The notes: generated from the letters alone by a model not told the origin. 64,000 nucleotides of DNA from Candidatus Nanopelagicales bacterium (GCA_018003655.1 JAGNDY010000002.1:926-64925); one strand, 5' to 3'; counted from the stretch's first letter, positions 35,237 through 38,668 are shown. Numbers and translations are program-made.

Positions 35237-36502
35237 ATGGCCACGAGCAACACCAAAGCGGGCAAGCCGCAAATCAAACCGCAGCGCAGCGCGCTCAGCG
35301 GCGCGATCTTGGTTGGCATCGGTCTGGCCATCGCCCAAGTCACCTCCTACCTGCTGAGCTTGATCTCCGCGCGCGTGCTCGGCCCTACGGGCTACGGCGT
35401 GATCGCCTCGATGCTCGCCCTGCTCCTGGTCGGAAGCGTCCTCGCTTTGGGCATCCAGGCCGCCGGAGCTCGCAGGATCGTCCTGCTGCCATCGGGCGAA
35501 CGACGCCACGGCGCATCCGGCGTGCTGCGCAGCGCCTACCTGGCGGGCGTGGCAGTCGCGATCGTCACGGCAGCGCTGGCCGCTCCGTTGACCTGGTTGC
35601 TGCACCTTTCCGGGCCTGTGCCGGTGCTACTGGTGGCCCTGAACCTGCTGCCGCTGACCGTCATGGGTGGCCTGCTCGGAGTCGCCCAAGGCCGCGAGGC
35701 ATACCTGCGTCTAGCGGTTCTGTGCGCTCTGAACGGAGCAGGTCGGGCGATGGGCGGCATCATCGGCGTCATCGTCTTCAAGTCGATTCTCGGCGCGCTC
35801 ATCGGCATGACCATCGGCACCTTCGCCTCGGTCGCCTTGGCTTGGCTACTGACTCAGAAACTGATCCATCGACCAGCGACGCGCCTCAATCACTTCATGT
35901 CCGAGGCTCTGCACGACACCCATGCGCTGTTCGTGCTTTTTGTGCTGACCAACATGGATGTGCTGCTTGCCCGCCACTTCTTGACCGCTTCGGCGGCGGG
36001 AATGTACGCAGCGGGCGCTGTCGTCGCCAAGGTCACCTTTTGGCTGCCGCAATTCGTGGCGACAGTGGCCTACCCCCGATTAGCCGACAAGCGACGGTCG
36101 CGAACCCTCGGACTCGGCGCGCTGATTGTCGCTGTCATCGGGATCGCAGCTACGGCGGTCATCGCGGCGATCCCGAATGTCGTGGTGCAGTTCGTCGGTG
36201 GTTCCGCCTACAACGAGTTGTCGAGTGAGGTGTGGATCTTCGCAGCATCGGGATCGGCGTACGCGCTCGCGCAGTTCCTGCTTTACGGCCAACTGGCGGC
36301 GAGCAAGAACTCGGCCATCATCGTTTTGTGGCTGGCGGTCGTCAGCCTGGTCACATTGGTGATTCTGTTTCATGACTCAGTGCTGCAAATCGTTTTGTCG
36401 GTCCTGGGCGTTGCCCTGTCTGTCTCCGTGGTGGGCGTGATCGAGCTCCTATTCGAACGACGCAGAGACCGCGCGATGGAACTGGAAGTCAATGCGGTCT
36501 AA
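35237..36502 (+). CDS. MOP/Wzx-type polysaccharide (oligosaccharide) flippase family protein
   Basis: 421 aa with about 12 TM helices. ATG 35237 is preceded by GGAGGA at 35228-35233. The longer ORF-track start at 34760 would overlap the divergent gene. Confidence 0.7.
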   Translation: MATSNTKAGKPQIKPQRSALSGAILVGIGLAIAQVTSYLLSLISARVLGPTGYGVIASMLALLLVGSVLALGIQAAGARRIVLLPSGERRHGASGVLRSAYLAGVAVAIVTAALAAPLTWLLHLSGPVPVLLVALNLLPLTVMGGLLGVAQGREAYLRLAVLCALNGAGRAMGGIIGVIVFKSILGALIGMTIGTFASVALAWLLTQKLIHRPATRLNHFMSEALHDTHALFVLFVLTNMDVLLARHFLTASAAGMYAAGAVVAKVTFWLPQFVATVAYPRLADKRRSRTLGLGALIVAVIGIAATAVIAAIPNVVVQFVGGSAYNELSSEVWIFAASGSAYALAQFLLYGQLAASKNSAIIVLWLAVVSLVTLVILFHDSVLQIVLSVLGVALSVSVVGVIELLFERRRDRAMELEVNAV

Positions 36503-37910
36503 GAACTCTGCGGCGATGCTGCGAACACGAACCGTCTCCCCTGGCCGCCAGTGCAGTCGCTCAGATTTCAGCGGCTGGGGACGAACCACCTCATCGGTGG
36601 CGGAGGACTGCGTGGTCTCAGGCTACGCCGAATTGACCGAAGCAATCACGACCGCGAGTACGCGGGGAGTCATCGCCCGTGGATTCGGACGGGCCGCCGG
36701 CGACGCGAGCCAAAACGCGGGCGGACGAGTAGTTCGACTCGAAGGCGAGTTCAGCGAACCGGCAGTCCACTGGATCGATTGGGAACGCCGCGTAGCGCGG
36801 GTGAGCGCAGGCGCGTCATTCGCGGCGGTGATGCGGGCGCTGCTGTCACAAGGGTGGTTCCTGCCCACACCTGGGACCACCGGGCACATGACCATCGGCG
36901 GCGCGTTCGCCAGCGACCACCTCACCGCCGCCCAGTCACGCCGTGGGTCACTGGCGGCCAACACCGAGGCCGTCGGGTTGGTGGACGGCAGAGGTCGCGA
37001 GTTGCGCCTGGAACCCCGAGGCAAGTCCGCGCCAGAGTTCTGGGCAACCGCAGCTGGGCTCGGCATGACCGGAGTCATCACCAGCCTCGACGTCCGTGTA
37101 GTGCCGGTTACCTCCGCCTGGATGGTGGTGGAATCGGCTCGACACGACCGCATCGATGATGTGCTCTCCGACTTGGAGAGAGCGTCGTCGCTTTACCCGT
37201 ACAGCTACGCCCTGCTGGATACCTCAGCATCCGGTGATTGCCTTGGCCGCGGCACCGTGTCGGCCGCCCGTCATGCTGTCGTGTCCGAACTGCCAGAACA
37301 CCGACAACACGAGGCATTGGACTTCGATCAGGTTGGTGGCCGGGCTAGGCGTCGGCAAGTTCCCGACCAGTTGCTCAGGCCTGCCACGTCACGACTGGTG
37401 CAGGGTCTTGCTTTCCGAGCCGCTCCTCGCCGCGAGGTGGAGCAACTGCAGCCGGCGTCCATGTTCTTCCATGTCGACGACCGCTCGAGCTGGACGGCAC
37501 CGGTGAGCGAGCACGGCCTGCTCACCTACCAGGTGTCAATCCCGCAGGACAGAACGGACCTCATCGCCCATTTACTCGAGGGCCTCGCCAACGAGCGGAT
37601 CGTCAGCCAACGCTGTCTGCTCATAAAACTGGCTAACCATCAATCCGGTGCCCTGTCGTTCGAAACACCGGGGTGGGCATTGTCGATCGAGTTCCCGCAA
37701 CAATGCCAACAGCTTTCGGCCACGCTGGATACCTTCGATGAGCAACTCGCGGCCGCCGGTGGCCGCGCGGCATTGTCCAACGATGCCCGACTACTGGCCG
37801 ACGTGGCTCCGGCGATGTATCCGAACCTGCCGGTCTGGCAATCTGCGCGCTCGCGGCTCGATCCAGAGCACCGATTCAGGTCTGACCTCGTTAGCAGGCT
37901 CCAACTGTGA
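36492..37910 (+). CDS. DprE1-like FAD-binding protein with degenerate active-site blocks
   Basis: Aligns end-to-end with the ORF at 9240-10604 (ARGFGRAAGDASQNAGG; C-terminal DPEHRFRSDLVSRL). However, SDVHGKNHH reads SDHLTAAQS and YFTKDSR reads ALSNDAR. Confidence 0.7.
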   Translation: MRSKNSAAMLRTRTVSPGRQCSRSDFSGWGRTTSSVAEDCVVSGYAELTEAITTASTRGVIARGFGRAAGDASQNAGGRVVRLEGEFSEPAVHWIDWERRVARVSAGASFAAVMRALLSQGWFLPTPGTTGHMTIGGAFASDHLTAAQSRRGSLAANTEAVGLVDGRGRELRLEPRGKSAPEFWATAAGLGMTGVITSLDVRVVPVTSAWMVVESARHDRIDDVLSDLERASSLYPYSYALLDTSASGDCLGRGTVSAARHAVVSELPEHRQHEALDFDQVGGRARRRQVPDQLLRPATSRLVQGLAFRAAPRREVEQLQPASMFFHVDDRSSWTAPVSEHGLLTYQVSIPQDRTDLIAHLLEGLANERIVSQRCLLIKLANHQSGALSFETPGWALSIEFPQQCQQLSATLDTFDEQLAAAGGRAALSNDARLLADVAPAMYPNLPVWQSARSRLDPEHRFRSDLVSRLQL

Positions 37911-38668
37911 TCGACGGAATGGGCAACCTGCAAAGCATCGCGGTTCTCGGTGGCACGGACCCAGCCGCACTCGCTGTCGTCGACCATTTGATCGGTCCTC
38001 GCCTTGCCCGGGTCGCGATCGCGGGGCCACCGACCGCGCGTCTGGCCGACGCCGCCGTCCGGATCGAGGCGCTTGGGGTCAGGCACGTCGCCACCCACGC
38101 GTACGACCCGTTGCGCCCTGGCGGAAACCGGCCCCACATTGACGAGATCTTCGATGCTGGGGACATCGACTTGACCATCGTGACGGGATCGGTGACCCAC
38201 CTCCTCGAAGCCATCGGCCCGGAACCCACAGATGACCAGGTGGCTGACCTGGTAACAGCGAACCTCACCTCACCCATGGTCAGCTCGCTGCAGGTCGTCG
38301 ATCGACTGCGTCGACAAGGCCACGGTCTGCTCGTGGTGGTCAGTCGTACGACCGGTTCAGCATCGAGCCGACTGAACCTGGTGAACAGCGGCATCCAGAC
38401 CGGGATCGACACGTTCGGGCTACGCGCCGTCGAGGCTCTACGAGGCAGCGGAGCGCGCGGCGTCGTCGCACGACTCGACGATCCGGCGAGCACATCGAGC
38501 ACACTCGCCGCCGACGACGAGATCACGCGGATGTTCTACGCCGAGGCCGCGTCCGAGATCGCCAAGGCGATTCGGTCAAAACGCCAGCGCGTCGTCTACT
38601 ACCCGGGGTCTGCCAAGGCAGCTTTCGCCAGCGCCGGTCGGTTACCGAGCCGACTGAGCCGTCACTAG
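37907..38668 (+). CDS. DprE2-like SDR-fold protein lacking NAD and catalytic motifs
   Basis: The N-terminus MIDGMGNLQSIAVLGGT parallels DprE2. However, GGTSEIG reads GGTDPAA and YASTK reads NSGIQ. GTGA overlap with the preceding gene. Confidence 0.6.
   Translation: MIDGMGNLQSIAVLGGTDPAALAVVDHLIGPRLARVAIAGPPTARLADAAVRIEALGVRHVATHAYDPLRPGGNRPHIDEIFDAGDIDLTIVTGSVTHLLEAIGPEPTDDQVADLVTANLTSPMVSSLQVVDRLRRQGHGLLVVVSRTTGSASSRLNLVNSGIQTGIDTFGLRAVEALRGSGARGVVARLDDPASTSSTLAADDEITRMFYAEAASEIAKAIRSKRQRVVYYPGSAKAAFASAGRLPSRLSRH

Follow-up and report, generated by a model that had tools for sequence, protein, structure and literature searches.

A second DprE1-like/DprE2-like gene pair without the canonical catalytic residues, coupled to a flippase gene in a Candidatus Nanopelagicales bacterium

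DprE1 and DprE2, the two subunits of the decaprenyl-phosphoribose 2'-epimerase, rank with the most intensively studied drug targets in tuberculosis. In Mycobacterium tuberculosis, DprE2 docks on DprE1 through its residues 1-10, and the complex is lost once 6 or 18 residues are removed (PMC9993113). Three-component extracytoplasmic pentofuranose systems (Kelly et al. 2024, PMC11127046) consist of a MATE/MOP flippase and a GT-C protein together with a polyprenyl-phosphoribose synthase, and their clusters carry DprE1/E2 homologues where the sugar is arabinofuranose (Araf); the handover of the epimerase product decaprenylphosphoryl arabinose (DPA) across the membrane, and its flippase, are open questions (PMC11127046). 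Here we analyse a stretch of 64,000 nucleotides from a Candidatus Nanopelagicales bacterium (GCA_018003655.1, JAGNDY010000002.1:926-64925; hereafter the window), which encodes, besides a canonical DprE1 and DprE2, a second DprE1-like/DprE2-like pair (E1-like and E2-like) directly after a MOP-superfamily flippase gene. Judging from the comparisons below, these two open reading frames are an intact duplicate of the DprE1/DprE2 epimerase, almost certainly dead as an enzyme and yet maintained by selection.

The E1-like protein aligns over its full length with the canonical DprE1 of the window (35% identity, 455 columns, BLASTP E-value 5e-76) and, over residues 14-472, with the M. tuberculosis DprE1 structures 4p8c and 4fdn (HMMER E-value 5e-53). 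Its best family is NCBIfam NF053785 (decaprenylphosphoryl-beta-D-ribose oxidase), aligned over residues 25-472; the score of 311.5 bits is under the equivalog cut-off of 500, whereas the canonical DprE1 scores 569.2, above it. The whole-length alignment of the two genes claimed in a sequence-only reading of this DNA was reproduced, as were all the motifs quoted there: ARGFGRAAGDASQNAGG; SDHLTAAQS for SDVHGKNHH; and GGRAALSNDAR for GGRIYFTKDSR. In M. tuberculosis DprE1 numbering, the window protein has Ala for Tyr60, Leu for His132, Ala for Lys134, Thr for Gln334, Ile for Lys367, Ala for Asn (or Thr) at position 385 and Asn for Lys418, and keeps Gln336. Positions 60, 132, 134, 334, 336, 367 and 418 are kept in 18 out of 18 canonical sequences compared, in which position 385 is Asn or Thr; all these positions except Tyr60 and Gln334 are among the inhibitor contacts that PMC6128881 lists in its Table 2. 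The flavin adenine dinucleotide (FAD) motifs of the window protein read GFGRAAGD, TIGGA, GLGMTG and GWGR (GxGRSYGD, TVGGA, GxGLTG and the GWGR loop in canonical DprE1). About 17 of 23 FAD-contact positions lie within the canonical range, counted on a list of FAD contacts in the DprE1 structures.

The E2-like protein is 32% identical to the canonical DprE2 of the window (BLASTP E-value 3e-18) and matches the M. tuberculosis DprE2 chain 21gq_C (E-value 3.8e-19). It scores 118.5 bits in NCBIfam NF053786 (SDR reductase), under the cut-off of 250, compared to 266.5 for the canonical DprE2, which is above it; the Pfam adh_short match reaches only 13.6 bits. Its Gly-rich nicotinamide adenine dinucleotide (phosphate) motif is degenerate (GGTDPAA vs GGTSEIG) and the catalytic Ser/Tyr/Lys triad is replaced by Arg/Asn/Gln, so that the alignment with DprE2 and the two substitutions first proposed (GGTDPAA for GGTSEIG, NSGIQ for YASTK) hold. 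Profile alignments and alignments to solved structures did not place intact catalytic residues of either protein at the expected columns, and the best family matches stay DprE1 and DprE2 when other FAD-oxidase and SDR families are considered. A misalignment artefact was rejected, as the motifs lie in high-posterior alignment blocks and align in the same way by BLASTP, HMMER and MAFFT.

The ratios of nonsynonymous to synonymous substitution rates (dN/dS) were estimated by the Nei-Gojobori method among the window and the loci L001, L086 and L088 (L numbers denote genome loci from a flippase scan, P numbers denote E1-like homologues). They are 0.14-0.18 for E1-like and 0.09-0.16 for E2-like, with 0.09-0.15 for the neighbouring 596-amino-acid membrane protein, 0.03-0.045 for the flippase (the most conserved gene of the block), 0.02-0.045 for PolA and 0.04-0.07 for GT4; in deep pairs, with saturated dS, the two genes give 0.12-0.34. 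The values of the pair are 3-5-fold those of the flippase or PolA. Both reading frames are intact at every locus, down to approximately 33% identity, and the low dN/dS together with the intact frames indicates that the genes are not pseudogenes; a search for pseudogenisation found intact open reading frames in all the orthologues and ratios (0.09-0.18) far from 1. The pair is, with high probability, a selectively maintained pseudoenzyme pair. The core of the sequence-only reading, a retained and co-translated pseudo-epimerase pair coupled to a MOP flippase, is thus supported by the alignment, orthologue, dN/dS and family checks.

The pair is no isolated case: it is a member of a wider clade, with at least ten loci and roughly 15-20 clusters at 50% identity. 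A flippase profile scan, with one genome per species, returned 193 related loci, 80 of which were kept for context counts. An E1-like gene stands directly after the flippase gene in 10 loci (the window, L001, L002, L003, L006, L007, L008, L010, L011 and L012; L003 and L009 are the same contig). An E2-like gene comes next in all nine loci with a contig long enough, the contig of L012 ending inside the E1-like gene. The pair-bearing loci are exactly those with a flippase at least 53% identical to that of the window, consistent with the pair having arisen once. The E1-like/E2-like junction CTGTGATCGA is kept in 9 of the 10 loci (window included) where it is readable; the flippase and E1-like genes overlap as ATG...TA(A/G), as in the window, in L001, L002, L003 and L008, and by 8-11 nucleotides in L010, L011 and L012. 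The closest E1-like orthologues (93%, 83% and 74% identity) were found in metagenomes and in a Candidatus Nanopelagicales metagenome-assembled genome, and a second tier (38-44% identity) comprises P0004-P0008, two of which, P0004 and P0006, are encoded immediately behind the flippase gene in L002 and L003; all relatives come from uncultured organisms. In an exhaustive profile search, 9162 DprE1-family proteins were recovered from 1.84 billion representatives, and about 20 of the top 150 representatives (50% identity clusters) have the D-W motif of the clade and are without Lys134 or Lys418. In a neighbour-joining tree the clade is separate from the canonical sequences, with long branches that preclude dating of the duplication. 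The clade is unnamed, its members being labelled 'FAD-binding protein' or 'hypothetical protein' by NCBI. The Joint Genome Institute (JGI) calls degenerate members (e.g. P0005, without Lys134 and Lys418; also P0009-P0012) 'decaprenylphospho-beta-D-ribofuranose 2-oxidase', which is likely an over-annotation.

The erosion of the motifs is graded across the clade. Canonical DprE1 (Mycobacterium, the window and five other loci) is invariant at GRSYGD, HGKNHH, QYQ and KDSR. In L002, L003, P0005 and P0007, His132 and the GRS motif are kept and Lys134 and Lys418 are gone; the window subclade has lost His132 and Tyr60 as well; and the E1-like proteins of L006, L007, L008, L010 and L011 have also lost the GxGR pyrophosphate motif and the GWGR loop. 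All E2-like proteins of the clade have Met or Gln in place of the catalytic Lys and a degenerate Gly-rich motif, with the Tyr kept in five. The most eroded E2-like of the clade was observed in L008 (3752-4396), shortened to 214 amino acids and with the N-terminus MVSSLGH; despite this erosion it overlaps the E1-like stop codon by 7 nucleotides.

Constraint within the two proteins is distributed unevenly. The substrate-pocket positions of the E1-like clade, taken from a list of 19 DprE1 pocket positions, have a mean entropy of 2.0-2.1 bits, compared to 1.0 bit at other positions equally conserved in canonical DprE1 (permutation p < 1e-4), indicating that selection was lifted specifically from the active site. 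Fourteen of the 19 positions are inhibitor contacts in Table 2 of PMC6128881, where Cys387 is the covalent attachment site. No new conserved constellation appears in the E1-like pocket across the clade, and the conserved residues of the clade's own (PAVxWIDW at window residues 90-97, Arg271 and Pro321) fall outside the pocket list. Lipid-sugar binding in the ancestral pocket, one of the functions first suggested for the pair, is disfavoured, the pocket being the least constrained part across the clade. The best-conserved segment of E2-like is the N-terminal MID[GS][VM]GN (0.67 bits vs a mean of 1.72; top 8-mer of the clade); in the window the N-terminus reads MIDGMGNLQS, the counterpart of the DprE2 docking peptide (residues 1-10). 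Set against the DprE1-DprE2 interface information, which consists of the AlphaFold model and the truncation experiments of PMC9993113, the part of the pair preserved by selection looks like a protein-protein contact rather than catalysis.

The flippase matches Pfam Polysacc_synt (PF01943; 33.7 bits, above the cut-off of 28.2), and its AlphaFold2 model (predicted local distance difference test score, pLDDT, 90.7) resembles WzxE (9g9p; Foldseek template-modelling scores 0.76/0.78) and MurJ (6nc6; 0.74), in support of the MOP fold originally assigned to it. Its start is placed at 35237, not at the ATG at 34760 of the longest open reading frame, on the basis of orthologue gene calls and homologue lengths; the longest frame has 159 extra codons at its 5' end (34760-35236), overlapping the 5' region of the divergent 596-amino-acid gene. 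The flippases preceding the degenerate pair share a C-terminal helix/tail, FHxSVLQI...E[LM]xxER[RS][RK]E (window 36380-36499), which is absent from 36 compared flippases without the pair, and 21 clade-specific positions; tail and positions could be an interface or mere shared ancestry, the two not being separable, and we draw no claim from them. The 596-amino-acid neighbour gave no meaningful match in Pfam or PDB by sequence and profile searches, and its AlphaFold2 model, made without an alignment, is unusable (pLDDT 43.9). A 17-member profile of this protein aligned with the window's two AftD GT-C domains (hhalign 97.1%, E-value 5.4e-11, 468 columns), which makes it distantly homologous to the GT-C arabinofuranosyltransferase domain of AftD. 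The family adjoins the flippase gene in 58 of the 80 genome loci, usually divergently. The 602-amino-acid open reading frame at 19642-21450 was considered as its paralogue and rejected, being unrelated by BLASTP.

The degenerate pair sits where sister lineages hold canonical UbiA-DprE1-DprE2 genes. In L014, at the same position beside polA, the order is flippase-UbiA-canonical DprE1-DprE2; in L017 and L032 the canonical DprE1-DprE2 genes lie approximately 1 kb downstream of the flippase gene; five further loci have canonical DprE1/E2 adjoining it; and a DprE1-family gene was found in the fetched flanks of 15 of the 80 flippase loci. In the window, the flippase and the AftD-like GT-C genes are adjacent, the UbiA gene being adjacent only in sister lineages (L014) and 25 kb off in the window. 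A layout of flippase, GT-C and UbiA/DprE genes would fit the three-component pentofuranose logic (PMC11127046). The lipid substrate of the flippase is assigned from the neighbouring UbiA, DprE1/E2 and AftD-like genes alone, and would be a polyprenyl-phospho-arabinofuranose. Between DprE2 or E2-like and polA, relatives carry a weakly matching Hydrolase_4 (alpha/beta hydrolase) gene of 476-484 amino acids (L002, 5487-6917; L003, 7073-8503; L014, 12198-13652; L027, 9204-10655), which is present neither in the window nor in L001.

The features of the window are collected in Table 1; the positions given earlier for both genes of the pair are exact, and the two overlaps are real when read from the coordinates. 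UbiA, DprE1, DprE2 and coaE, in this order, make up the live operon, which lies 25 kb from the degenerate pair. The polA gene is convergent with the pair, and there is no further operon gene downstream of E2-like. The polA-rpsA-coaE interval is typically compact in Actinobacteria, and in the window (7822-41486) it is filled by envelope-glycan genes. The dS between the window (27486-38668) and its closest relative, L086, steps up between the GT4 and the GT-C-like gene (AftD 0.018, GT4 0.049; 596-amino-acid gene 0.197, flippase 0.167, E1-like 0.181, E2-like 0.216), and the four-gene block from the 596-amino-acid gene to E2-like may have been swapped by recombination as a cassette. An open reading frame at 4989-6203 weakly matches AbiEi antitoxin C-terminal and DUF559 (endonuclease-like); it lies upstream of a gene for an AMP-binding enzyme and has no bearing on the pair.

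Table 1 Features of the window and their coordinates.
Feature	Position	Strand	Remarks
DprE1-like (E1-like) putative pseudo-oxidase	36492..37910	+	472 amino acids, ATG start, VAO/PCMH fold
DprE2-like (E2-like) putative pseudo-reductase	37907..38668	+	253 amino acids, GTG start
GTGA start/stop overlap of E1-like and E2-like	37907..37910	+	E1-like TGA at 37908-37910
Overlap of flippase stop and E1-like start (11 nucleotides)	36492..36502	+	flippase stop codon ends at 36502
MOP-superfamily flippase (Wzx/MurJ-like, 12 transmembrane segments)	35237..36502	+	421 amino acids
Polytopic membrane protein, AftD-like GT-C (distant)	33372..35162	-	596 amino acids; divergent from flippase gene
Canonical DprE1	9240..10604	-	454 amino acids; all catalytic and pocket residues present
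Canonical DprE2	8427..9224	-	GGTSEIG and Ser/Tyr/Lys triad present
UbiA-family prenyltransferase, candidate polyprenyl-phosphate phosphoribosyltransferase	10601..11620	-	Pfam UbiA E-value 2.5e-22; first gene of canonical operon
AftD-type GT-C protein	14976-18770	+	in polA-coaE interval
AftD-type GT-C protein	27486-31691	-	in polA-coaE interval
GT4	31877-33025		in polA-coaE interval
AT3 acyltransferase	12372-14447		in polA-coaE interval
AT3 acyltransferase	26496-27677		in polA-coaE interval
GmhA-like SIS, HAD and GHMP-kinase genes	24161-26414		in polA-coaE interval
PorA-family protein	23059-24066		in polA-coaE interval
polA	38703-41486
rpsA	21460-22938
coaE	7822-8523

We propose the following history for the pair. 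The ancestral operon would have been flippase-UbiA-DprE1-DprE2 beside an AftD-like GT-C gene, an arrangement surviving in sister lineages, and would have served as a module to make, export and use a polyprenyl-phospho-arabinofuranose donor. In the lineage of the window, a second UbiA-DprE1-DprE2 set presumably took over the chemistry, leaving the flippase-linked copy redundant for catalysis; this copy would have lost UbiA, then the catalytic residues and, in deeper branches, the cofactor motifs, while keeping the fold, the reading frames, the translational coupling to the flippase and, in E2-like, the N-terminal peptide by which DprE2 docks on DprE1. E1-like and E2-like would be produced in fixed proportion with the flippase and would form a DprE1/DprE2-type heterodimer at the cytoplasmic face of the membrane, acting as a non-catalytic accessory of the flippase, e.g. 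as a tether to the site of donor synthesis. We put the chances at about even that the two proteins form a heterodimer without catalytic activity, retained as an accessory of a module that exports the arabinofuranose donor, and regard a role physically tied to the flippase as possible, with the balance tilting somewhat against it. A bolder version, in which the flippase is the polyprenyl-phospho-arabinofuranose exporter of these Actinomycetes and the dead heterodimer its obligatory cytoplasmic subunit, the fossil of an epimerase-flippase metabolon with docking split from catalysis after the duplication, seems rather improbable.

Several observations weigh against this proposal. The loss of catalysis is read from sequence, and the E1-like of the window, with most FAD-contact positions kept, may still be a flavoprotein. 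That the two proteins form a heterodimer, that they associate with the flippase and which lipid is flipped are likewise deduced, and the adjacency to the flippase gene could be a leftover of the ancestral operon rather than a sign of physical interaction. Wzx-type flippases mostly move polyprenyl-diphosphate oligosaccharides. A canonical pair besides the degenerate one was seen in two genomes, those of the window and L003. Furthermore, the most decayed E1-like proteins do not conserve the predicted peptide-receiving surface (the GWGR loop and residues 330-333), whereas the E2-like peptide is conserved, a combination that would fit binding of the peptide to canonical DprE1 at least equally well.

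This last point leads to the main rival, in which the degenerate subunits act as decoys or regulators: E2-like would pair with canonical DprE1 and E1-like with canonical DprE2, throttling or relocating donor production instead of acting directly for the flippase. The near-invariance of the docking peptide, even where the GWGR loop and residues 330-333 of the predicted docking surface are gone from the partner E1-like, speaks for it, as do the altered kinetics of DprE1 upon DprE2 binding in M. tuberculosis (PMC9993113) and the known cases of dead paralogues that regulate live partners, e.g. the trypanosomatid prozymes. However, the conserved GTGA coupling argues that the two degenerate subunits are made together and for each other, and it is the flippase gene to which the pair is strictly linked, the canonical operon lying 25 kb away; we consider a decoy or regulator unlikely, if worth keeping in view. 

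Two other explanations concern the nature of the proteins themselves. E1-like could be a flavoprotein whose substrate is a different polyprenyl-phosphate sugar or some other compound, with working residues off the DprE1 catalytic columns. The window subclade keeps GxGRxxGD, TIGGA, GLGMTG and GWGR, which makes FAD binding plausible, and purifying selection and the clade's own PAVxWIDW, Arg271 and Pro321 would suit an enzyme; altered chemistry is nevertheless disfavoured, and in our estimation quite improbable, because the pocket is the most variable region across the clade, with no new conserved constellation and with the clade-specific residues outside the pocket list, and because the cofactor motifs are lost in deeper members, the FAD motifs being destroyed in L006-L011 in genes still under selection. 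E2-like, moreover, is without the Gly-rich motif and the catalytic Lys throughout, and without Ser/Tyr in many members. Alternatively, the open reading frames could be functionless leftovers in decay, persisting through the flippase operon (polarity or translational coupling) or for want of time to break, which would agree with their faster evolution compared to the flippase or PolA, with the progressive erosion of motifs and with the shortened E2-like of L008. Neutral decay is contradicted by the low dN/dS and by the frames intact at all loci; conservation extends to the start/stop overlaps and to the N-terminal peptide of E2-like, and coupling has no downstream operon gene to serve, because polA is convergent. 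Leftovers of this kind are therefore highly improbable.

That a pair without its catalytic residues is still preserved by selection beside a flippase suggests that an epimerase fold was given a new, non-enzymatic task in the export of cell-wall sugars. Genes of the epimerase are found time and again, in environmental Actinomycetes, linked to a flippase of the WzxE/MurJ type and to an AftD-like transferase, and one lineage has apparently kept a full dead epimerase copy with the flippase over long evolutionary time. If the pair is an accessory of the flippase, it would be evidence of a physical interaction between epimerase and exporter and would point to a candidate family for the donor flippase; if the obligatory-subunit version is true, this would be the first flippase known with pseudoenzyme adaptors, and a pointer to the route that takes the arabinan donor to the outer leaflet, a matter unsettled in mycobacteria. 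There is also a consequence for annotation, as some pipelines give the name DprE1 to proteins without its catalytic residues, as in the JGI names.

Compared with canonical DprE1/DprE2, the pair is alike in the homology of both subunits over the full length (E-values of 5e-53 and 3.8e-19 to solved chains), in the adjacent and coupled genes in the same order, in the DprE2-type N-terminal docking peptide and in the genomic association with UbiA and arabinofuranosyltransferase-type GT-C genes. It differs in that both proteins of the window fall under the NCBIfam equivalog cut-offs, in the replacement of His132, Lys134, Lys418, Tyr60 and most substrate-pocket residues of E1-like and of the Gly-rich motif and Ser/Tyr/Lys triad of E2-like, and in being accompanied by a canonical pair in the same window. 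A literature search on dead or paralogous DprE1/DprE2 found no relevant description. The locus shares with the pentofuranose systems (PMC11127046) a MOP-fold flippase gene adjoining a GT-C gene, and UbiA and DprE1/DprE2 in one operon (in L014 and elsewhere in the window); unlike it, those systems work with active epimerases and include no described DprE1/E2 pair without catalytic activity, and their GT-C is GT136 where that of the window is AftD-like, the flippase substrate being putative in both.

With its fold kept, its catalytic residues lost and its genes under purifying selection, the pair has the predicted hallmarks of pseudoenzymes. It recalls the trypanosomatid AdoMetDC and deoxyhypusine synthase prozymes, in which a dead duplicate is under purifying selection beside an active copy, and a prozyme-like activating or regulatory effect is putative for the pair of the window. 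Pseudoenzyme paralogues are already known; what is unusual here, and unlike the prozymes, is that both subunits of a two-enzyme system appear to be dead together and are still coupled to a transporter gene instead of a live enzyme.

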